From Cyanobacteriota bacterium (GTDB lineage Bacteria > Cyanobacteriota > Cyanobacteriia > Cyanobacteriales > Nostocaceae): a stretch of 64,000 bases of DNA. The stretch is from positions 32,001 through 96,000 of the forward strand of contig JBJOKS010000019.1 in assembly GCA_046045965.1 (NCBI GenBank). The letters are read 5' to 3'. The notes below the pieces were generated by a model. The model was not told the origin of the DNA. It searched no databases and saw only the letters and a program-made list of their open reading frames with translations. Shown here piece after piece: positions 9,819-48,571 of the stretch. Within the stretch, counting starts at the first letter, position 1. Each line of letters begins with the position of its first letter. The translations under genes and the position numbers were made by a program.

Positions 9819-12800
9819 ATGTCAAGACTCTTGGTTACTCAATATCAAACAGAAGTACAAAAAATCATCCAGTTTGGTGGTTCAAGAAAGGAAACTTCTA
9901 TTCGTTTTGCTTTTCAAAATTTGTTAAATGAATATTGCAAACCCCGTGATTTTTTACTTATTCCTGAGTTAGATTTTAAATTACCTAACGGTAAAGTCGT
10001 TTATCCCGATGGTACGGTTAAAGATGCTTTGCGGTTAGATTGGGGTTACTGGGAAAGTAAGGATGAATATGATAATTTAGATCAGGAAATTGAGAAGAAA
10101 TTAAATAAGGGTTATCCTGATAGTAATATTTTATTTGAAGATTCCCAAACTGCGGTTTTAATTCAAGGTGGTACGGAAACTATGCGCGTATCTATGCAAG
10201 ATGCAGACGCGCTAGATGGTATTATTAATAACTTTATAAATTTTGTCCGTCCTGAAGTGCGGGACTTTCGATCAGCGATTGAAGTTTTTAAACAGGATAT
10301 TCCCATTATATTAGATTCTCTCAGAAAGTTGATTGATTGTCAAGAGGGGAATAATCAATCTTTTGAAAGTGCAAGAAATAAGTTTTGGGAACTTTGTAAA
10401 AAGTCCATTAACCCGGAAATTACATTGTTAGATATTCGGGAAATGATGATTCAACATATTTTGACTAAGGATATTTTTATTAATATTTTCAGTGAGTCGC
10501 AGTTTCATCAAGAAAATAATGTTGCGAGGGAGTTACAAGGGGTAATTTCGACGTTTTTTACAGGAAGTTTAAAGCGGAATACTTTGGGAAGTATTGAAAG
10601 ATATTATGCAGTAATTAAAAGAACTGCTGCAAATATTGTCAATCATCAAGAAAAACAGAAGTTTTTGAAAGCATTATACGAGAATTTTTATAAAGCATAT
10701 AATCCCAAAGCTGCGGATAGGTTGGGTATTGTGTATACTCCTAATGAAATTGTCAGGTTTATGATTGAAAGTGTGGATTTTTTAGTACATAAGCATTTTG
10801 GGAAGTTGTTAGCAGATAAAGATGTGGAAATTTTAGATCCTGCGACGGGTACGGGTACGTTTATTACAGAGTTGATTGATTATTTACCTCCCCATTGTTT
10901 ACAGCATAAATATAAACAGGAGATTCATTGTAATGAGGTAGCAATTTTACCTTATTATATAGCGAATTTGAATATTGAATATACTTATAAACAGAAGATG
11001 GGGGTTTATGAGGAGTTTGAGAATATTTGTTTTGTGGATACTTTGGATAATACGTTATTTGCAGGTAAGCAAATGGATTTGTTTGCGATGACTTTGGAGA
11101 ATACGGAGAGGATTAAAAGACAGAATGATCGGACGATTTCGGTTATTATTGGTAATCCTCCTTATAATGCAAAGCAGGAAAATTTTAATGATAATAATGC
11201 AAATCGGAGTTATCAGAATATTGATAAATTGATTAAGGAAAGTTATGTGAAATATAGCAAAGCGCAAAATAATATAGTTCTTTATGATATGTACACTAGA
11301 TTTATTAGATGGGCTGCTGATAGACTAGGTAAAAATGGGATTATAGCGTTTATTACAAATTCATCTTTTATTGATGGGAGAACTTTTGACGGTTTTAGAA
11401 AAGCGATAAGTGATGATTTTAATTATATTTATGTAGTTGACTTACATGGTGATGTCAGAAAAAATCCCAAACTTTCAGGAACTACACATAATGTTTTTGG
11501 GATTCAAACTGGTGTATCTATTATGTTGATGGTGAAAAAACAGAATAGTGATTTTAATAAATGTCAAATATTTTATATTCGTCGTCCAGAATTTGATACA
11601 GCAGAGGAAAAATTAAAGTTTTTATCACAAACGAAATTGAATCAAATTCCTTTTCAACATATCACACCAGATAAAAATCATAATTGGATAAATCAAGCAG
11701 ATAATGATTTTGATGATCTTTTACCTTTGGTGAATAAAGATGTGAAAGCAGGAAAAGCAGAAGAAGCTGTTTTTAAATTGTTTTCAAGAGGTGTAGAAAC
11801 AAATCGAGATGAATGGGTTTATGATTTCAATCAGTCTAGTTTAAAAAATAAAATACTTTTTTTAATAGACACTTTTAATATTTCTGTAGATAATCAAACA
11901 AAAGATTTATCAATTAAATGGAATTCTTCTTTAGAACAAGTGATGACTTCTAAAATTAAATCATATTTTAATGAGGATTTGATGATATCATCCACTTATA
12001 GACCTTTTTGTAAGCTATATCTATATGCAGAGAAAATTTTTAGTCATAGATTAACCCAAAATCACTATGATATGTTTTCAAGTAATCTGAACAGTTCTAA
12101 TATTGTGATTACTTTTCAGAGTTTTGGTAGTAACCGTTCTTTCAATACTTTAGCTAGTGATGTACTTCCAGAAGTACATTTTACAGGTGCAAATCAATGT
12201 CTACCTCTGTATTTTTACGACAAAGAAGGAAACCGCATTGATAATATAACCGACTGGGGACTAAAACAAATTCAAACCCATTATCAAGATGAAACAATCA
12301 CCAAAATAGACATTTTCCATTATACTTATGCAGTATTACATAACCCAGAATACCGCAGAAAATACGAACTAAATTTTAAACGAGAATTTCCCCGTTTACC
12401 CTATTATGAAAACTTCCAAAAATGGGTAAACTGGGGAAAAAAACTCATGGAATTACATATAAATTATGAAACAGTCACACCTTATCAATTAACCCGTGTA
12501 GATATTACCTTAAAAGACACCCAAAAAACCATCAAAGTTAAATTGAAAGCAGATAAAAATCAAGGTGTAATTATCTTAGATGATATTACCACATTAACAG
12601 GAGTTCCTGAAATAGCTTGGGAATATATGTTAGGAAATCGGAGTGCATTAGAATGGATATTAGATCAATATAAAGAAAAGAAACCCAAAGATCCCACCAT
12701 TGCGGAAAAGTTTAATAATTATCGGTTTGCAGATTATAAAGAACAGGTAATAGAACTGTTGATGAGAGTGTGTACAGTGAGTGTAGAGACGATGAAAATA

Positions 12801-38843: not shown

Positions 38844-38997
38844 GGGAACAGGGAACAGGGAACAGAAGGCAAGAGTTTATTCTTCCCATTCCCCAATCAC
38901 CAATCACCAGTCCCCACTCCCAGTTGCATAAAAAGTGGAGGTTTTCATTTTTTGTGCTATAACCCACACATAAAATGATTTTAGACAGAAGCGACTA

Positions 38998-41556
38998 ATG
39001 GAACCAGACAAACTAACCAGGTTTAAAGAGTACGGTGAGTTTATCCTCCGCAAAATTGACTCTGTACCGCAACATCCCTCCCAACAAGAAGATTGGGTCC
39101 CTACTAGCCTGGATGACTGTCTAATGCGCTTGCGAGAAGCTGCACAAAAGACTGTGGAAATGGCCACTTCACCTGTGAAAATTGGTGTGATGGGTGAATT
39201 TAGCAGTGGTAAAAGTTTGCTGTTAGGAAGTTTAATTGGTTATGCGGATGCCTTACCTGTGAGTGAAAATCCGACTACAGGAAATGTGACTGCAATTCAT
39301 ATCAAACCACAGGAAGGTTTTGCTACTACTCACATAGATAATTACACTGTTGAGTATTTATCTCATGAAGGGGTAAATGAGTGTTTACACTTCATGTTAG
39401 CAGAAGCAAACCGTCGTGCTGTAGCTGCTGGTTTACCACCTTTACAAGTTTCTAAAATTAAAACTGGTAAAGATATTTCTACTTGGTGTGAAGAAGCTTG
39501 GAAGAGTTCCAATAATTTAGAATTACGCTATCTTTTACGGGAATTAGTGTTATTTTTGCGGGCTTATCAAGCCTATGGAGAAGCTTTATGTGGTAAGCAT
39601 TATCACATTGATGCAGAAACAGCAAAGGAAGGTTTACAATTAATTGAATTGCCGATGGCGATTCAAACGTTAAGATTTGATGATTTACCGCCGGCACATA
39701 TTCGTTTACCGAGTGCGCCCCAAGTTCTCCAAACTCAATTATTACAAAATAGTTTTCACCTGATTCGTAGAGTTGATATTGAAGTCAAAATATCAAGGGA
39801 AATTTGGGATTTATCTGGTGCGGAAGAATTTGTATTATTAGATTTTCCCGGTTTAGGTGCGGCTAATTCTGGTGCGCGAGATACATTTTTATCATTAAGA
39901 GAATTGGCACAGGTGCAAACAATTTTAGTGTTATTAAATGGTAAATCACCGGGGAGCGATCGCGCCAACAAAATATTTACCATGATGCAGCAACAACGCC
40001 CCGGACAAGATTTAAAAGATTTAATTCTGGTAGGTGTGGGACGTTTTGATCAACTACCTTTAGATAGTGAAGGTGGGGAAAGAATTTTAGATTTTTTAAT
40101 TGCAGATCATCCTAACGCCCAACCTTTACAAACAGACGTAGTTTTTCAGAAATTAAAAGTTCTGCAAACTATCATTGATGGTGCAGAGGCTTTTACTACC
40201 CAAAAAGACCGCATCGTTTTATTATCACCATTGTTAGGGTTAGCAGAATTAGCCAAACGTTCGACTACAGTTAAAGCCGGTTCCGAAGAATTTTTAGCTA
40301 ATTTAGATTATCCTGATTATCTAGAACGTTCCAAGAAATTACAACATAAATGGGGTAAATTAAGCGAAAAATTATTAACAACTGAACCGCGTAATTCTCT
40401 AGGTAGACAGTTAGGTTATTTTGCCCAAGATGGGGGTGTTAGTAAACTGCGGGAATTGATTCAAAATCATGTAGCTACTCATGGTTTAAAACAATTATAT
40501 GAAGATACCCGCAGGGCGGCTGATCTTATTCATCAACAACAAGAACAACTGAAATATATCATCGCTGAAATTCACGAACAAGGCATACCTACGGCTGATA
40601 GTCCGGCGTTAATTGAGTTACGTTTAGCTATTGAAAGTTTAGATAAAACTTACAGAAACTTTCAAAAAGACTTGGGTAAAGAACCACTCAAAGATAGACG
40701 GGGACTGGTCGTTAGCGATGTGATCAAAGATGAATTAACCTATAGAATTCTCAATTGGAATCAATGGACTTTACTATTTAATAAATGTCAAAATGGGACA
40801 ATTGCTTTAGCAGAATCTAAAGGTGCTGCGGGGAAATTATTTGACAGAGGAAATAGAGTTAATAATTCCCTACCTACTAAGAGTGATGACTTTTATCCAG
40901 AGTTTGAAAAGACAGTTAAAGAACTAGAAGATTTTGCTCGCGATCGCATTCGTCAAGCTGTGGTAGACTTGTTGAATAAATTAGCCCATCAAGTAGTGCT
41001 AGAACGGGAGAAATTACAAGCAATTCTTAATCCTGAAATGGAACAATTTATTGAAGATACATTTGGAGTTGAAGCCGCAGATTTATTTTATAAACTCCTG
41101 TTAGGATGTGATCCAAACCAATGGAAAGAAGCGATTATTGTGGAAATAAATAATCAAGATAAATCAATCTCTCCTGAAATTATGTTTCCCCTAGCACGAC
41201 GGGATGAAAAACACAGTATTGGACAAATATTTGATTGGTCTCCAGAGAGAAATCAATCTTCATCTCGTGCAGCAAATCATCAACTTTTTGTTTTACGACT
41301 GCGAGATGAAATTACAGCTAGTGCTAGTCTGCACCTTGTCCAATATATCAGCGAAGTTAATCAACAAGTGAATGCAGAATTAGAAGGAATTTTAGATCAA
41401 ATAATTCCCAGTTTACAAAACTTGTCTAAAAAAGAAGAACTTCTCAGATATATTGCTGCTGGAGACTCAACCCCAGAATTAGCAATTCCTAATTGGTTAG
41501 AAATTCTTGCAGATATTGCATCAATTAATGAGAGTGATATTTATGAGTATTTTTAA
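38998..41556 (+). CDS. Dynamin-like (SrfC-like) GTPase
   Basis: G1 GEFSSGKS, G2 NPTTG, G3 LDFPG, G4-like GRFD; long helical C-terminal half. Confidence 0.8.
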   Translation: MEPDKLTRFKEYGEFILRKIDSVPQHPSQQEDWVPTSLDDCLMRLREAAQKTVEMATSPVKIGVMGEFSSGKSLLLGSLIGYADALPVSENPTTGNVTAIHIKPQEGFATTHIDNYTVEYLSHEGVNECLHFMLAEANRRAVAAGLPPLQVSKIKTGKDISTWCEEAWKSSNNLELRYLLRELVLFLRAYQAYGEALCGKHYHIDAETAKEGLQLIELPMAIQTLRFDDLPPAHIRLPSAPQVLQTQLLQNSFHLIRRVDIEVKISREIWDLSGAEEFVLLDFPGLGAANSGARDTFLSLRELAQVQTILVLLNGKSPGSDRANKIFTMMQQQRPGQDLKDLILVGVGRFDQLPLDSEGGERILDFLIADHPNAQPLQTDVVFQKLKVLQTIIDGAEAFTTQKDRIVLLSPLLGLAELAKRSTTVKAGSEEFLANLDYPDYLERSKKLQHKWGKLSEKLLTTEPRNSLGRQLGYFAQDGGVSKLRELIQNHVATHGLKQLYEDTRRAADLIHQQQEQLKYIIAEIHEQGIPTADSPALIELRLAIESLDKTYRNFQKDLGKEPLKDRRGLVVSDVIKDELTYRILNWNQWTLLFNKCQNGTIALAESKGAAGKLFDRGNRVNNSLPTKSDDFYPEFEKTVKELEDFARDRIRQAVVDLLNKLAHQVVLEREKLQAILNPEMEQFIEDTFGVEAADLFYKLLLGCDPNQWKEAIIVEINNQDKSISPEIMFPLARRDEKHSIGQIFDWSPERNQSSSRAANHQLFVLRLRDEITASASLHLVQYISEVNQQVNAELEGILDQIIPSLQNLSKKEELLRYIAAGDSTPELAIPNWLEILADIASINESDIYEYF

Positions 41557-41636
41557 AGGAAGAAGGGAACAGGGAACAGTAAATAGGTATTAGTCTTAGG
41601 TTTTTTCCGCGTCTACCAATTACCAATTAGCAATTA

Positions 41637-41688
41637 CCCATTACCCATTACCCATTACCCATTACCCATTACCCATTACCCATTACCA
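41637..41688. repeat. Heptamer STRR (CCATTAC)n
   Basis: About 7 tandem copies between the GTPase and Hsp70-like genes. Confidence 0.9.
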
Positions 41689-41698
41689 AACTTAAATT

Positions 41699-44600
41699 AT
41701 GCCTGTGGAAATTAATCTTCCACCCAAATATCAACTGAAAGTTAAAGAAAATCAAAGTTTGGATTTACCAGCTATCCAAATTGTCGCTACAAATAGTAAT
41801 ATTCCTCATATTTCTAGTATTACTTGTAGCGTTAAAGGAACACCCACAGAATTAGCAACGGAAATTCAACAAACTTATAAACACTTTAACTCTGCTACAC
41901 CGCAAAAAATCTCTAACTTATGTCAATTAGGACAATATCCTTATCAGTTAGAGAACCCTTTAAGCGAAACAGTCAACTGTAATTTACAAGTGATTGTGGA
42001 GTATTTTGATTCTGATGCTACAGGAAAACCAATATTATCTATTAAGAAAAATATGGGTGTTTCCTGTAATCTTTGGTTTACACCTGATTTTGAAACAACA
42101 ACAAATAAACCTATGAATCCTTTTGAATTAGATACCTATCTCAATAAATTAAGTCAACAATTAAGTGAAAAACTCAACGAAAAACCTCAGAAAAGATTTC
42201 CTGGTTGGTTCGCGGTAGATTTTGGGACTTCTAACTCTACAGTCACACTTTTTGACCCTATTGAAGTACCCATTGCGGAAGTTTTACCCAGAGAACAAGA
42301 ATTAAGATTACGTCAAAGGTTAGCAGAATGGTTAAATTCTCCTGCTGCTTCAGCTTTACCAGATATAGGTGTAAATGAGTGGGAAAAGTTTATTGCTAAT
42401 ATTAGTAAAAACTTAGAAATTGAACCAGAACAATTAAGCGAAGTTTTTGAAAGTGATAATAAAGAAATCTTTTTAGAAGCAATTCGCCAAATTGAATTAT
42501 GTTTAGGAAATAGTGAGAGATTTCGCCGCGCTGTTAGCAAAAAACTTTATCAAATATATCACGAAGTTTTTAGAGTTCCCACTTTAGAATCACAAAATTT
42601 GATTCCTGTAGTTTTAGATATTGACAGACGGGAAACAGAAATTCCCAGCGAAATGGAAGTATCACAAATAGAACCCTTAAAATTGCAGATGGGTAGAGAA
42701 GCAAGGGATAATAGAAAAAAAGCCATTGCCCAAGGTACAATTACTTCTGTTAAGGATATAATTAGCAGATTTCATCATTCACCTAAACGTTATTTTGGAC
42801 AAAATCGTACCTTTCCAGTGATATTAAATGAGGAAGAAAACAACATTCAAGTTAATCAATTAATTCAAGCAGCATGGGCGCATTTAATTGAATTAACAGA
42901 AGATTATCGTCAACGTGCTAGGAGGAGATTTTCTGAAGGAGATTTATTAACAGGAGTTTTCACCTATCCTACAGTTGCACCTCCAGTAGTGAGAAAAGAA
43001 ATTAAAGCATTAGTAGAAGAATTAGGAATTGATGATGTCCAAACAGCTTATGATGAAGCGGTTTCTGTAGCTATCTTTTTCTTATGGCGAGAATTTGGTG
43101 GGAATTTAAATATTGGTATTGAATCATTTAAAACTCGTTGTCGTCAAGAAAAAAATAAATGGTCACAAAATGTTTTAGTTTTAGATATCGGTGGTGGAAC
43201 TACAGACTTAGCATTAATTGAATTGACATTAGAAGATAAAACTCCATTTTTTGCAGATCATGAAGATCGGGGTTTAGGTGGACGTTATTATAAACTGACA
43301 CCGAAATTATTAGGTTCTTCTGGACATTTACAGTTAGGTGGTGAGTTAATTACCCTACGCATTTTTAGACTTTTAAAAGTTGCTATTGCCGATTTTCTTT
43401 TAACAGCAATAACCAACGGAGACATAGAAAGCGACAAATTAGAAGATTTAATCAACTCAGAATTAAACGAACGCTTTTTAGAAGATGGCAAATTTAAAAG
43501 TGGCAGTTTATTAAAGTGTGTAGACAAAGAAAACCCCGAAGGTGACGTAGCTTTCAAAGATGCTTTAGATACAGCCGAAAAAGTATTACCTACCCGATGG
43601 CAACAAGCACCCCAACGTCTACAAACATTTTACACCCTGTGGGATCATGCGGAATCTGCAAAATTAAAATTAGGGCAAAAATCACCCGCAGATGGTTCTT
43701 TATTCACCTTCACCCTTTCCGAACAACAAATTAGTGAACTCCTTGCCCAAAGTGCAGTTAAATTTCAAATAATTATCCCTGATGCTATCTCCATAACCAT
43801 AGACAGTCAACAATTTGAACGGGCGGCAATTTCCGCAATTAAAGAAGCAATAGGTATTGCCAAAGGCTTGATGGAAAGCCGTTTAAATGCAGACAATAAA
43901 CAAAAAGTAGACTGGTTAATTCTCTCGGGTAAAACCTGCAATTTGGATTTAGTACAAAAACAAATCTACCAAGAATTTAGCAAATCTCCCTATTTTGTTT
44001 GGAACCCAGAACGCATTACCTTCGTTTTAGAATTTACCAAATTAGCAACTTCCGCAGGTGCTTGTTACGCCGAAAAATTAAGAAGATTAAGATTTGATCC
44101 CGAAGAATCTAAAAGCTTACTGCGTAAAGGTGCAAACCAGCTAGAAATAGATGTCAAAAACCTATTTTATTACCTACCTTGCAACTTCAAACGCAAAACC
44201 CAAAGTAGCGAATTATTATCTATATTCAACGCGGGACAAGAACTTTATCAACTTGCAGCGTGGGAAAGTGTAGCTAAAGTGCGGACAAATTGGCAAGGTA
44301 TCCAATTAACAAACATTATCTATCGTCAAGACTATGAAGATGGAGAATTGCGTTTATGGGGTAGCTTTGATGGTAAAAATTTACTAGAGAAATTAGGGAT
44401 GGAAGAACCAGAATTTCTCAAAAAAATTAAAGTGCAATTTGAAATAGATCAAACCTTACAATTTAGCGTTTTACTATGTCAAGGTAATCCCCATTATTTA
44501 ATAGATGATCAGGGAATTAACATCAATTATGTCATATCCGCAAATTCAGAACCAGCCGATTTATTTACTGATGAACAATTAAAATGGAATATCGCCATTG

Positions 44601-45097
44601 AACAACCCCGTAAAGACTTAACCGATGGTGATATCGCCATCAATGTATTAGAATCAGCAACAGTTGATCAACCAGATGCTTATCATTTAGTATTTGCAGT
44701 TGATAGCAATCAAAATCAATCTTTACAAACATTTCACTATTTACAAGATGGTGTTAACGAACCAGGAAAAGGGTTAATTAGTAATCCTTTACCTCCCTTC
44801 CCACAAAATGGTCAACACACTTTTTATATTTATCAAACAGATAGCGAAACCAATACCAAAAAATGGATACGTATCGGCGCACTTAGTAAACCAGATATCA
44901 CCACAGATTATCCCTGTCAATATCATGTCACACTTGATAATAAAGGTATATTAAGAATGCACGCAGGTGAAGTACCTTATTGGACATCACATAATCAAGA
45001 ATGTCTGAAACAAGAAGGATGTGTTTATCGTGCAGAATTAGAATTACAACCCAATGAAATTGATAAAGAACGCGATCCTTTTTGCGGAATACATTAA
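41699..45097 (+). CDS. Atypical Hsp70/actin-fold ATPase (SrfB-like) with large insertions
   Basis: AVDFGTSNST, TYPT, YDEAVSVA, LDIGGGTTD, LGGELIT, ILSGKT, KLATSAGA. Confidence 0.85.
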   Translation: MPVEINLPPKYQLKVKENQSLDLPAIQIVATNSNIPHISSITCSVKGTPTELATEIQQTYKHFNSATPQKISNLCQLGQYPYQLENPLSETVNCNLQVIVEYFDSDATGKPILSIKKNMGVSCNLWFTPDFETTTNKPMNPFELDTYLNKLSQQLSEKLNEKPQKRFPGWFAVDFGTSNSTVTLFDPIEVPIAEVLPREQELRLRQRLAEWLNSPAASALPDIGVNEWEKFIANISKNLEIEPEQLSEVFESDNKEIFLEAIRQIELCLGNSERFRRAVSKKLYQIYHEVFRVPTLESQNLIPVVLDIDRRETEIPSEMEVSQIEPLKLQMGREARDNRKKAIAQGTITSVKDIISRFHHSPKRYFGQNRTFPVILNEEENNIQVNQLIQAAWAHLIELTEDYRQRARRRFSEGDLLTGVFTYPTVAPPVVRKEIKALVEELGIDDVQTAYDEAVSVAIFFLWREFGGNLNIGIESFKTRCRQEKNKWSQNVLVLDIGGGTTDLALIELTLEDKTPFFADHEDRGLGGRYYKLTPKLLGSSGHLQLGGELITLRIFRLLKVAIADFLLTAITNGDIESDKLEDLINSELNERFLEDGKFKSGSLLKCVDKENPEGDVAFKDALDTAEKVLPTRWQQAPQRLQTFYTLWDHAESAKLKLGQKSPADGSLFTFTLSEQQISELLAQSAVKFQIIIPDAISITIDSQQFERAAISAIKEAIGIAKGLMESRLNADNKQKVDWLILSGKTCNLDLVQKQIYQEFSKSPYFVWNPERITFVLEFTKLATSAGACYAEKLRRLRFDPEESKSLLRKGANQLEIDVKNLFYYLPCNFKRKTQSSELLSIFNAGQELYQLAAWESVAKVRTNWQGIQLTNIIYRQDYEDGELRLWGSFDGKNLLEKLGMEEPEFLKKIKVQFEIDQTLQFSVLLCQGNPHYLIDDQGININYVISANSEPADLFTDEQLKWNIAIEQPRKDLTDGDIAINVLESATVDQPDAYHLVFAVDSNQNQSLQTFHYLQDGVNEPGKGLISNPLPPFPQNGQHTFYIYQTDSETNTKKWIRIGALSKPDITTDYPCQYHVTLDNKGILRMHAGEVPYWTSHNQECLKQEGCVYRAELELQPNEIDKERDPFCGIH

Positions 45098-45128
45098 ATG
45101 AGTTAACAGTTGTCAGAAAAATGCACCA

Positions 45129-45245
45129 GCGATTAGAAATCGCGGCTATACTATACAGACAAAACCCACCTCCGTGGGTTCTATCTAAATTTTTAATTAG
45201 TCCACGCAGGTGGGCTTAGTTTGTGTAGTAGCGATTTCTAATCGC
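45129..45245. repeat. REP/MITE-like palindromic element
   Basis: Terminal gcgattagaaatcgc / gcgatttctaatcgc inverted repeats with internal acccacctccgtgggtt and agtccacgcaggtgggct hairpins. Confidence 0.75.
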
Positions 45246-45268
45246 CCTTTTAAAATATCCTCTTTCCT

Positions 45269-46399
45269 ATGATCCAACATTTACAGCAATTATTAGCAAC
45301 AGAAAATTCTCAAATCTCTCAATTATTAAAATTGCACTTATACGGACTAGAAGCAATTTTAAATCAAGCCCAGATAGAGTATCTAAATGATCCAGGTAAT
45401 GATTTATGTGAAAAGGTAATACTAGAAATTCACAACCTTTTACAACCTCAACTAATTCCCGAAAATATAGAAACTGTAGAACCTGTAGAAAATGTAGTTA
45501 TTGATGAATCTCAACCTGATCAATTATTAAATGAACTCAGAGAAGTTTTTCATACAGATTTAGAATTAAATTTTTATTTAGGAGATACACCATTACAAAG
45601 TCAAAATGATGCTGATTTATGGAATGAAATTCACCGTAAATTGTTACGAGTTCCTGAAGATTTAGCCACATCTTGGCGAAAATATGCTTTAGAAATGGCG
45701 AAAAAAATTGGCGCAACAGAAGATTATGTAAATCTTGTTCACCTACCTTTTGTGCGGGATGAAATTATTTATCCTGGTTTAAATGGTACTATCCAAGCTA
45801 GAGGTTTATGTTTGTCAAAAAAAGCCCTTCTCAAATCAGATATTGGACAATTATATAATTCGGAAGATTTGCATTTATTAGCAGGATTTTTACTTTTATA
45901 TACTAAATTTATAGAGATAGAACCTGATTTACATCATGCTTTAAAAAGTGTGTTTAGCTTTGATGTTGTTTCCTTGCATTCCCAACCAGAACAACGTCAG
46001 CTTTATCTGCAAACATTGAGCGATCGCTTACAACGTACCCAAAAAACTGAGGAAAATACTGATCCGATTTACAATCTACGTGCTTGGCTTGACATAGATG
46101 AAGCCATACATTCCCTAGTATTCCTTCCTCCAGCCGAGCGTTATTCCTGGTGGGGTAAGTTACAACAAGAATCAAGACGTATTATTAAAAAAGTAGCCAA
46201 TAAAGCGATAAAAGCCGGTTATGATGTGCGAATTAGACAATTATCAGGACTTTATGCTGATATTTGTGCTTATTCCAAAGATGATCTACAATTAGAGCAT
46301 GGTGGAACACCTGGAGAAGTATTAACCTGTTTGCGTTTATATGCACGAATAAATCAAGAAGAAAATCCGGGGAGGGTGCTATTTCGGTCTTTACGGTGA
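45269..46399 (+). CDS. Hypothetical protein, third gene of the GTPase-Hsp70 unit, possibly GrpE-like C-terminus
   Basis: 376-aa helical protein ending in GTPGEVLTCLRLYARINQEENPGRVLF. Confidence 0.75.
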   Translation: MIQHLQQLLATENSQISQLLKLHLYGLEAILNQAQIEYLNDPGNDLCEKVILEIHNLLQPQLIPENIETVEPVENVVIDESQPDQLLNELREVFHTDLELNFYLGDTPLQSQNDADLWNEIHRKLLRVPEDLATSWRKYALEMAKKIGATEDYVNLVHLPFVRDEIIYPGLNGTIQARGLCLSKKALLKSDIGQLYNSEDLHLLAGFLLLYTKFIEIEPDLHHALKSVFSFDVVSLHSQPEQRQLYLQTLSDRLQRTQKTEENTDPIYNLRAWLDIDEAIHSLVFLPPAERYSWWGKLQQESRRIIKKVANKAIKAGYDVRIRQLSGLYADICAYSKDDLQLEHGGTPGEVLTCLRLYARINQEENPGRVLFRSLR

Positions 46400-46419: not shown

Positions 46420-46432
46420 CTGCTCATCTATG

Positions 46433-46639
46433 CTACATACCAGGAGTATTAGGAGGTGTAGGACGGGGAGTAGTAGGAGGTGTTGTAGGACGATCTTCTG
46501 GTTTACGTTCAGCCTCAGCTTCAGGAGTTTGAGCAAATATAGTGTGTTGTGTGTTCGTAGCTTGAAGGTCTTTGGGTATGGCCGCAACAGCAACGGTTCC
46601 TAAAAATGCTAGTAAAGCCACGGGTGCTAAAAGTCTCAT
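46433..46639 (-). CDS. Small exported Pro/Thr-rich protein
   Basis: AAGGA ribosome-binding site, signal peptide MRLLAPVALLAFLGTVAVAA, PTTPPTTPRPTPP tail. Confidence 0.7.
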   Translation of the reverse strand: MRLLAPVALLAFLGTVAVAAIPKDLQATNTQHTIFAQTPEAEAERKPEDRPTTPPTTPRPTPPNTPGM

Positions 46640-46839
46640 ATTGTTATTCCTTTGAAGACTTACGTAACCCTATTTTGAACAATCTGCAAATTCTATATAT
46701 CTCGCTTTAGGTAGTCTTGCTTATGTTACTTAAGTTATAGAAACTCATTTCCAAAAAATTCTAAATTTGTTGTTTCAGGAAGATGTAAAGAGGGAAGGTT
46801 GGGTTTATCTAATAACAAATTTATCCTCAATTTCTCCAC

Positions 46840-47764: not shown

Positions 47765-48571
47765 ATGATTAAAACTCCTCTCCGTTATCCTGGTGGTAAA
47801 TCAAGAGCGATCAAACAAATAGCCCAACATTTACCAGCAAACTTTACCGAATTTAGAGAACCATTAGTTGGTGGTGGTTCTGTTTTTATTTATCTTAAAC
47901 AAACCTACCCTAACTTAAAAGTTTGGATCAATGATTTAAACAGAGAACTATATTTATTTTGGTATATTGCCCAAGAAAATTTATCTAAATTAGTTTCCGA
48001 AATTCTCTATATCAAAGAAACCCAAAAAGATGGAAAAAAGCTATTTACAGAATTAACCAATATAGAAGATATTAATAAATTAACAGACTTAGAAAGAGCA
48101 GTTCGTTTTTTTGTCCTAAACAGAATTACCTTTTCAGGTACAATAGAATCAGGCGGATTTTCCTTGGAAGCATTTCATAAACGTTTCACCGATTCATCAA
48201 TAGAAAGATTAGAAAAATTAGCAGAAATTTTAACACCAGATATCAGAATTACAAACCTAGATTACAGTGAACTATTACAAGCAGCAGGAAAAGATGTATT
48301 TATATTTCTAGATCCCCCTTATTTGGGCAATAAAAATTCCAAACTATATGGAAAAGATGGAGACTTACATACAAAATTTGATCATCAAAAATTTGCAGAT
48401 CATTTAAAAACCTGTCCTCACAAATGGTTAGTCACCTACGACAACTCAGAACAAGTACATCAAAACTTTACCTGGGCGAAAATTGCCCAATGGGAACTAC
48501 AATATGGCATGAACAATTATAAACAGAAAACAGCAGAAAAAGGACAAGAACTTTTTATTACTGGATCTTAA
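47765..48571 (+). CDS. Dam-family DNA adenine methyltransferase (no adjacent endonuclease)
   Basis: LRYPGGKS, EPLVGGGSVF, INDLN, LNR..FSG, FLDPPY. Confidence 0.93.
   Translation: MIKTPLRYPGGKSRAIKQIAQHLPANFTEFREPLVGGGSVFIYLKQTYPNLKVWINDLNRELYLFWYIAQENLSKLVSEILYIKETQKDGKKLFTELTNIEDINKLTDLERAVRFFVLNRITFSGTIESGGFSLEAFHKRFTDSSIERLEKLAEILTPDIRITNLDYSELLQAAGKDVFIFLDPPYLGNKNSKLYGKDGDLHTKFDHQKFADHLKTCPHKWLVTYDNSEQVHQNFTWAKIAQWELQYGMNNYKQKTAEKGQELFITGS

Follow-up and report, generated by a model that had tools for sequence, protein, structure and literature searches.

Three large open reading frames lie on the forward strand of the window, the 64,000-nt stretch of DNA that was analysed, in the order gene 1 (38998-41556, 852 aa), gene 2 (41699-45097, 1132 aa) and gene 3 (45269-46399, 376 aa). 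They are separated by gaps of 142 nt (genes 1-2) and 171 nt (genes 2-3), and the co-oriented frames, their motifs and the repeats filling both gaps were found again as given in a preliminary description of this DNA. The first gap contains a 7-nt tandem repeat (41614..41690), which we take to be of the STRR type and which forms 29 three-unit runs genome-wide, and the second a MITE-like inverted-repeat element of 119 nt (45128..45246) that recurs at 26 genomic places, at 16 of these over at least 90 nt. Upstream of gene 1, and in the same orientation, is a likely promoter of the trio (38924..38978), with a predicted TTGCAT box (38924-38929) and an extended -10 box, TGcTATAAC (38955-38963); a 12-nt inverted repeat that brackets the -10 box (38945-38956 / 38967-38978) is a possible operator. 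By eye, most of the closer loci show the -10 region, and the four most divergent do not. No TCCGGA sequence, presumably the DIF1-type motif, occurs close to the operon, and no NtcA-type box was noticed there by eye. RNA-run contigs over the locus cover the flanking genes as well and bridge no gap, and are thus uninformative on transcription.

From gene order, annotations and sizes we infer that genes 1-3 correspond to alr1146, alr1147 and alr1148 of Nostoc PCC 7120, of which the first two are annotated as dynamin family and SrfB and the third carries no annotation (Larsson, 2011, PMC3141437; Simm, 2015, PMC4365693). In that strain the counterparts form one transcription unit (PMC10287535 supplement), in line with the co-transcription anticipated for the locus, and their mapped 5′ UTR of 29 nt (PMC10287535 supplement) fits the placement of the predicted promoter, since the -10 box implies a transcription start ∼28 nt before the gene 1 ATG.

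Gene 1 is a predicted soluble dynamin-like GTPase. Its product matches Pfam Dynamin_N above the cut-off (E 1.6e-8, residues 62-110), and the G1-G4 motifs recognised earlier are conserved in all 24 aligned rows that span them, including that of a distant protein from the metagenome contig L039 (one extra row, L104, is interrupted by an N gap); G3 reads DFPG in every row. The lack of a clear TM hairpin was likewise borne out, there being no hydrophobic segment of TM length (top 19-residue hydropathy 1.10), although an amphipathic paddle could be present. The nearest Atlas clusters comprise Dynamin_N proteins of Cyanobacteriota and Actinomycetota, and a search of PDB sequences gave no match. An Hsp70-type gene, gene 2, lies directly downstream in 34 of 34 genomes, which would assign gene 1 to the ‘chaperone clade’ of cBDLPs. 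An apparent split of gene 1 in one genome (G035) was rejected as an artefact caused by an N gap.

Across 126 homologues of gene 2, nine actin/Hsp70 residues (D174, G176, D452, E453, D496, G498, D503, K655, and G744) are invariant, confirming the nucleotide-binding motifs reported for it. The top Foldseek matches of its structure model (pLDDT 89) are full-length DnaK in the ATP state, and VIA-align gives Z scores of 25-29 against Hsp70 chains (28.6 for BiP) compared with 24 for MreB. Alignment with ATP-state BiP extends over 467 residues and reaches BiP residue 528, whereas chains consisting of the nucleotide domain only align over 353-357 residues; the model also superposes on Sse1 as far as residue 540. 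The C-terminus, which had been considered unlike the DnaK substrate-binding domain, does not appear so in the model. Gene 2 models as an Hsp70 in which a nucleotide-binding domain (residues 165-800; 42191..44098) that contains large insertions and keeps its ATP-site residues invariant is followed by a docked, beta-rich region of substrate-binding type (residues ∼820-1118; 44156..45052), part of which can be superposed on the beta domain that binds substrate in Hsp70. No long helices are modelled beyond residue 950, such that the helical lid is missing from the model. When the tail was compared with six genomic DnaK-type proteins by HHalign, the alignments were collinear, yet not above shuffled controls, and a repeat suspected within the beta domain reached a score of 13.0 at a probability of <1%. 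The N-terminal extension, previously put at ∼160 aa, is present and is resolved by the model into an all-beta domain of 127 residues (residues 1-127; 41699..42079) and a flexible linker; the domain seems to be optional: in 11 of the 34 other genomes, the match to gene 2 begins no earlier than residue 121. Gene 2 falls below the canonical DnaK cut-offs (prok_dnaK, 15 bits vs 823; Pfam HSP70, 13 vs 21), and the genome holds four separate full-length DnaK matches besides it, which supports the earlier view that this is not a housekeeping dnaK locus.

Database labels for gene 2 are ‘virulence factor SrfB’ or ‘molecular chaperone’. The former, together with a weak Pfam SrfB match and the juxtaposition of a large actin-fold protein with a second large protein, as in SrfABC of Salmonella and Xenorhabdus, would make the trio a cyanobacterial SrfABC virulence or toxin operon, which we regard as very improbable. 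Of the likeness to SrfB and SrfC suggested in the preliminary description, only the SrfB match stands, and it is motif-level, covering 70 of 992 profile positions at 23.6 bits, below the cut-off of 27.1. Gene 1 has no match to the SrfC family at E 0.1 (a genome search with SrfC, PF10139, run without a positive control, also gave none), the gene order is unlike srfA-srfB-srfC, and inheritance is near-universal in free-living phototrophs. The SrfB label is misleading for gene 2.

Searches of Pfam, NCBIfam and PADLOC assign gene 3 to no family at a meaningful E. In its structure model (pLDDT 90), the C-terminal residues 265-376 (46061..46396) form helices and a small beta domain, and GrpE accounts for seven of the eight top Foldseek rows, the best at an E of 0.058, which is below significance. 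Against GrpE, VIA yields Z scores of 5.5-6.2 (Z 5.8 corresponding to an rmsd of 2.9 over 56 residues) that are under the reliable level of the tool and are exceeded by those of generic helical bundles (Z 7.2-7.5). At the sequence level, HHalign against 26 cyanobacterial GrpE sequences scored 15.0 vs a shuffle maximum of 18.1, none of 67 gene 3 homologues matches GrpE PF01025 at E 1, and comparison with PDB sequences and viral folds returned nothing significant. The model weakly hints at a GrpE-like head at the end of gene 3; the genome also encodes a canonical GrpE. MIEAP was rejected as a relative of gene 3, its Atlas link of 0.75 being below the lead threshold. GrpE is a dimer, and the complex of gene 2 (residues 165-800) and gene 3 (residues 81-376) was predicted with a single copy of gene 3; the score was 0.00 both times, no control was folded alongside, and the result speaks neither for nor against binding.

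Co-occurrence of the three genes in other genomes had been set beforehand as a check on the unit, and 34 of the 35 genomes sampled from the window's family carry the whole trio together, compared with none of 265 other cyanobacteria; by coordinates, gene 3 is adjacent to the pair in 31 of 34. Gene 2 is present in 244 of 250 family genomes, and the dN/dS ratios of gene 1 (0.06-0.11) and gene 2 (0.06-0.14), beside 0.06-0.11 for trpD, indicate strong purifying selection on both. The high prevalence of gene 2 and the low dN/dS mark a near-core operon and not the patchy defence island that had been expected. They also count against a lineage-fixed defence or conflict system in which the GTPase would sense or seal infection damage under the gating of the Hsp70/GrpE-like pair, curbing spread along the filament. 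This explanation, the chief rival to the reading that we prefer and one that we consider possible but doubtful, draws on a broader comparison. The high-GC contig L039 carries the trio in the same order at 26-34% identity, together with DUF4407 and a second Hsp70-like gene; it is the one true relative among four loci obtained from 604 candidate stretches in a metagenome scan, which leaves the non-cyanobacterial range uncounted. Distant gene 2 relatives with a named taxon, from 20 looked up, are mostly from filamentous actinomycetes (five of seven clusters). GTPase-centred conflict systems with an HSP70 and GrpE theme are described in the available part of Kaur et al. (2020, PMC7159879), Bacillus subtilis DynA functions against phage according to the source portion at hand, and a type II methyltransferase family lies directly downstream of the trio in 12 of 24 loci. 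Nevertheless, neither a conserved fourth gene nor a variable effector follows the trio in the 24 cyanobacterial loci, merely 8 of 78 flanking genes match PADLOC (four methyltransferases, two restriction enzymes, one NYN and one TnpB-like), and searches of plasmid and phage collections gave no match. The trio itself matches PADLOC components at the P-loop or motif level (LeoA, P-loop only, E 4e-5; PDC-M61B, E 0.023), with no full-length match, and its regulation tracks nitrogen status.

The alr1146-alr1148 genes are included, as function-unassigned entries only, in lists of genes specific to the heterocyst-forming lineage, as far as the accessible parts of these sources go (PMC3141437 supplement 6; PMC4365693 section 13; Gupta and Mathews, 2010, PMC2823733). 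Six of the 250 family genomes lack gene 2; of these, five were examined, and all carry nifH, either intact or as two fragments, none contains gene 3, and an HglE-type synthase scores above the cut-off in four. In another genome (G306) nifH is present and the operon decayed, and the plant symbiont ‘Nostoc azollae’ has gene 2 as a pseudogene (PMC3141437 supplement 6), a loss that the defence explanation can also claim. These cases argue that heterocysts do not need the operon. Within genus g8, gene 2 is split into two frames in the nifH-lacking G401, a single case, and whole in both nifH-positive genomes.

After nitrogen step-down, expression of the PCC 7120 trio changed by +0.99 at 9 h and by -0.07 at 24 h, values read as log2 (PMC10287535 supplement), and fold changes at 12/21 h of 9.1/5.3, 2.5/1.8, and 8.7/7.7 have been tabulated (PMC4365693 Table 6). 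The trio rises transiently under nitrogen starvation, only about twofold in one of the two data sets. In the accessible part of a published gradient, Alr1146 and Alr1147 are detected in soluble, membrane-cleared lysate with differing profiles, and Alr1148 is not among the entries listed there. By our own sums from the same part, 34-36% of Alr1146 is in fractions 1-5, the monomer zone, and this distribution, broader than that of a monomer, suggests oligomerisation. A literature search that missed most subscription papers and some supplements found no functional, mutant or localisation study of alr1146, alr1147 or alr1148.

Solubility of both proteins and transient stress induction could also reflect specialised proteostasis, with the Hsp70 and its exchange factor serving lineage-specific clients in nitrogen stress and the GTPase acting as co-factor or scaffold; the Hsp70 fold of gene 2, its substrate-binding-type region and a possible GrpE-like partner are in keeping with this. 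We nonetheless judge it unlikely, since the genome already encodes a canonical GrpE in addition to its four full-length DnaK matches, a scan of 55 flanking genes recognised no J-domain gene, and the invariable position of gene 2 beside the GTPase points to a fixed partner.

The reading that we prefer, and give about an even chance, is that a private Hsp70/exchange-factor pair controls assembly of the soluble dynamin while membranes or septa are being remodelled. The split and whole copies of gene 2 in genus g8 also count in its favour. The co-occurrence of the genes, the shared PCC 7120 transcript and the separate DnaKs uphold the initial idea of a dedicated GTPase-chaperone unit in a filamentous cyanobacterium, and the operon would constitute a self-contained assembly/disassembly machine. 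The gene 1 GTPase would oligomerise and work on membranes or at septa, a membrane action that is unproven because the protein is without a TM segment and is found in membrane-cleared lysate. Gene 2, a specialised Hsp70 whose activity is presumed from the invariant ATP-site residues, would open and close its lid-less substrate-binding region through an ATP cycle; its client would most likely be the gene 1 dynamin, given the fixed adjacency. Gene 3 may act, via the GrpE-like head, as the private nucleotide-exchange factor of gene 2. Such a machine would be switched on transiently when heterocyst-forming filaments exhaust nitrogen, and would aid the remodelling or protection of membranes or septa in differentiation, being helpful and not essential. 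More tentatively, and with less than even confidence, the trio may have been acquired by the ancestor of heterocyst formers, probably from filamentous actinomycetes or as a gene set shared with them, and may have been kept as core machinery for building and stripping dynamin coats on membranes or septa during differentiation. Chaperone-driven uncoating in eukaryotes offers a parallel to the stripping step.

If the preferred reading is true, a chaperone cycle is dedicated to a bacterial dynamin and ties filamentous cyanobacteria to filamentous actinomycetes; if the coat machine is real, two independent lineages of multicellular bacteria have this tool in common. Genes specific to heterocyst formers have been listed for 15 years, many without a function, and the present operon is both large and strongly conserved, responds to nitrogen and is found in the genetic model PCC 7120, such that the reading is directly testable.

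The GTPase-Hsp70 pair, initially held to be undescribed, had already been named as the chaperone clade by Jilly et al. (2018, PMC5827413), in the available part of whose account 11 members are listed and a dynamin-like gene is followed by a DnaK-domain gene, as here. One member, Cylst_0498, and a gene 3 homologue, Cylst_0501, are three locus tags apart. The listed members belong to genera that we assume to be heterocyst-forming. The third gene, the near-core spread, the actinobacterial copies and experiments on the clade are absent from that part of the account. With the DnaK-GrpE system (PF00012; PF01025, 1DKG) the trio shares a nucleotide-binding domain, a docked beta region, ATP-site residues and, in the next gene, a possible GrpE-type head. 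Compared with DnaK, gene 2 is about twice the size, contains large insertions, has a beta domain added at the N-terminus, lacks a helical lid in the model and scores below the cut-off for Pfam HSP70; gene 3 has no detectable GrpE sequence likeness, and no J protein is recognised nearby. The GAP1-N2 systems, in the part of the source available (PMC7159879), resemble the trio in that multicellular bacteria combine a GTPase gene with one for HSP70 and one, putative in the trio, for a GrpE-type protein. They comprise GAP1, variable effectors and DO-GTPases whose Walker B motif has a glutamate, whereas the trio has a GTPase of Dynamin_N type with DFPG at G3 and, in cyanobacteria, three constant genes only. 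Finally, Streptomyces DynAB, which control septation according to the portion of the source at hand, are likewise dynamin-like GTPases of a filamentous, differentiating bacterium and offer a precedent for the preferred reading; DynAB are a dynamin pair, whereas the trio couples a single dynamin without a TM segment to an Hsp70 partner.

The three co-oriented open reading frames claimed in the preliminary description were found on the + strand, as genes for a dynamin-like GTPase (gene 1; 852 aa, 38998-41556), a giant Hsp70-family ATPase (gene 2; 1132 aa, 41699-45097) and a partner without family (gene 3; 376 aa, 45269-46399), separated by gaps of 142 and 171 nt and each present in the genome as a single full-length copy. 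One gap carries a heptamer repeat and the other a 119-nt inverted-repeat element (45128-45246) that occurs in 26 places in the genome and is likely a small mobile element; both repeats are ordinary for the host genome. By order, size, annotation and named homologues, we infer that the genes are counterparts of alr1146-alr1148 of Nostoc PCC 7120, where the trio forms one transcript; the unit measures 7727 nt, its 5′ UTR 29 nt, and its values, taken here as log2, go from +0.99 at 9 h to −0.07 at 24 h (PMC10287535, supplement). A 12-nt inverted repeat around the operon's conserved −10 box (38945-38978), partly retained in relatives, is a candidate repressor site. The TetR gene upstream lies beside the operon in just 2 of 24 loci and is thus not conserved there. 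Convergent with gene 3, on the minus strand (about 46430-46640), there is probably a short ORF (∼70 codons) whose product would begin with a hydrophobic stretch and end in a Pro/Thr-rich repeat tail.

Co-occurrence of the three genes in other genomes was borne out: in a survey of 300 other genomes drawn from the phylum, 34 of the 35 from the window's family carried every one of the three genes, the same 34 each time, and all 265 genomes outside it carried none; the trio is co-inherited. By match coordinates, gene 1 adjoins gene 2 in 34/34 genomes and gene 3 comes next in 31/34; the order is conserved in 17 of 20 fetched loci, with freely varying neighbours, and in two loci (L094 and L095) genes 1 and 2 are separated by an inserted gene, or gene fragment, of the Rpn family. 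The genes are under purifying selection: pairwise dN/dS against eight relatives was 0.06-0.11 (gene 1) and 0.06-0.14 (gene 2), while gene 3, compared in seven of the eight, gave 0.13-0.27 (for comparison, trpD: 0.06-0.11, four relatives). Plasmid and phage collections gave no match to the operon genes. Family-wide presence, kept order, low dN/dS and the lack of plasmid or phage matches together fit the profile of an inherited, near-core operon.

Gene 2 is present in 244 of 250 family genomes and missing from six. Among five of the latter that were tested, gene 3 was found in none, nifH (whole or as two pieces) in all five and an HglE-type synthase over cut-off in four; the sixth (G334, 860 contigs) also lacks gene 1. 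In another genome (G306) nifH is present and the operon decayed, and in one genus of the family gene 2 is split in the nifH-less genome and intact in both nifH-bearing ones. Since losses occur in genomes bearing nifH and HglE-type genes, the operon is dispensable both for heterocysts and for nitrogen fixation.

Among 1.84 billion representatives, 426 relatives of gene 2 were detected, many full length (28-46% identity). A taxon was available for seven of 20 clusters looked up, namely one cyanobacterium, one planctomycete and five actinomycetes (Nocardia, Streptomyces, Actinomadura/Spirillospora, Sinosporangium and Dactylosporangium). Gene context beyond cyanobacteria comes from a single locus, the distant metagenome contig L039, which carries all three genes tightly packed in the same order (26%, 34% against a Nocardia query, and 27% identity). 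Its flanks (L039:310-3413 and 10609-11699) encode a DUF4407 membrane protein, a 527-aa protein with no Pfam match and a second Hsp70-like protein, which suggests a larger unit at the distant copy.

These actinomycete relatives and decay in a symbiont, together with the HSP70+GrpE theme that Kaur et al. describe (2020; PMC7159879), would fit a fixed role in defence, but near-universal presence, low dN/dS and the lack of effectors make such a role rather unlikely. PADLOC matched 8 of 78 flanking genes (of 90 picked, the 12 from L001, L003 and L006 being omitted); type II methyltransferases account for four of the matches, restriction enzymes for two, and an NYN and a TnpB-like protein for the remaining pair. 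A Dam-type methyltransferase gene lies at 47765-48571 in the window, and 12 of the 24 loci have a member of the same family close to the operon; a restriction enzyme accompanies it in L085 and L096 and is absent in the window.

Gene 1 carries a dynamin-type G domain, matching Pfam Dynamin_N over cut-off, with G1-G4 conserved as far as L039 and no transmembrane segment; its nearest Atlas clusters are cyanobacterial and actinomycete Dynamin_N proteins. Gene 2 matches Pfam SrfB and HSP70, both below cut-off. Its predicted model (pLDDT 89) begins with a beta domain (1-127), which a flexible linker joins to an Hsp70-type nucleotide-binding domain (about 165-800); a tail rich in beta structure follows. 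The model's top Foldseek matches are full-length DnaK in the ATP state. Across 126 homologues the residues of the ATP site do not vary, and the model shows an Hsp70 fold in which this site is intact. The C-terminus had been described as unlike the DnaK substrate-binding domain; however, the VIA-align alignment with ATP-bound BiP (Z 28.6, rmsd 4.3, 467 residues) extends to BiP residue 528, ∼110 residues longer than with nucleotide-domain-only chains, indicating that the model's tail holds a substrate-binding-type beta region. No helical lid is seen in the model, and a sequence-profile test of the beta region, collinear over 90 columns, scored 17.1, not above shuffles (18.3).

Domain and family profile searches with gene 3 gave nothing meaningful. 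The C-terminal end of its predicted model (pLDDT 90) consists of helices plus a small beta domain, and GrpE occupies seven of the eight top Foldseek rows (best E 0.058). VIA-align gave Z 5.8 with E. coli GrpE (rmsd 2.9, residues 319-375) and 6.2 with GrpEL1 (residues 265-376), against 7.2-7.5 for unrelated helical bundles, and sequence tests for GrpE likeness were negative. A GrpE-like head is accordingly a coherent lead from the model, not a result, strengthened because gene 3 sits behind an Hsp70 gene. Elsewhere in the genome, the N-terminal 148 residues of gene 3 have a weak match (G000:C78:6740-7210; 28%, E 2e-4). The same genome has a second non-canonical chaperone cluster (G000:C1:97359-103184), in which a GrpE-like match lies among three adjacent Hsp70-like matches.

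It may be proposed that the gene 3 protein exchanges nucleotide on the gene 2 protein, which would bind and recycle gene 1 oligomers, the GTPase acting at membranes or septa in nitrogen-triggered differentiation; the scheme as a whole we regard as evenly balanced between right and wrong. Alr1146 and Alr1147 were both detected in a membrane-cleared lysate, and sums from the same supplement place 34-36% and 46-52% of them, respectively, in fractions 1-5, the monomer range (PMC11797042); Alr1148 was not seen among the supplement entries listed. In the single RNase-treated gradient covered (alr1147_rnase1), a second Alr1147 peak appeared in fractions 15-16 (5.6% and 10%), absent in controls. Weaker than the defence reading are a role in general proteostasis, which is improbable, and a SrfABC-type toxin, which is very improbable indeed.

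The operon is real, conserved and uncharacterised, the papers found under its locus tags being gene lists; neither the substrate-domain reading of gene 2 nor the GrpE-like reading of gene 3 was found in the literature searched on the operon and locus tags. The three genes are already known as lineage signatures, alr1146 (dynamin family), alr1147 (SrfB) and alr1148 being among 96 heterocystous-specific orthologues (Larsson et al., 2011; PMC3141437). In that list alr1147 appears as a pseudogene for 'Nostoc azollae' and under two tags for Raphidiopsis. The pair is likewise already named in print: among the dynamin-like proteins of cyanobacteria, Jilly et al. (2018; PMC5827413) define a chaperone clade whose genes are followed downstream by one for a DnaK-domain protein.
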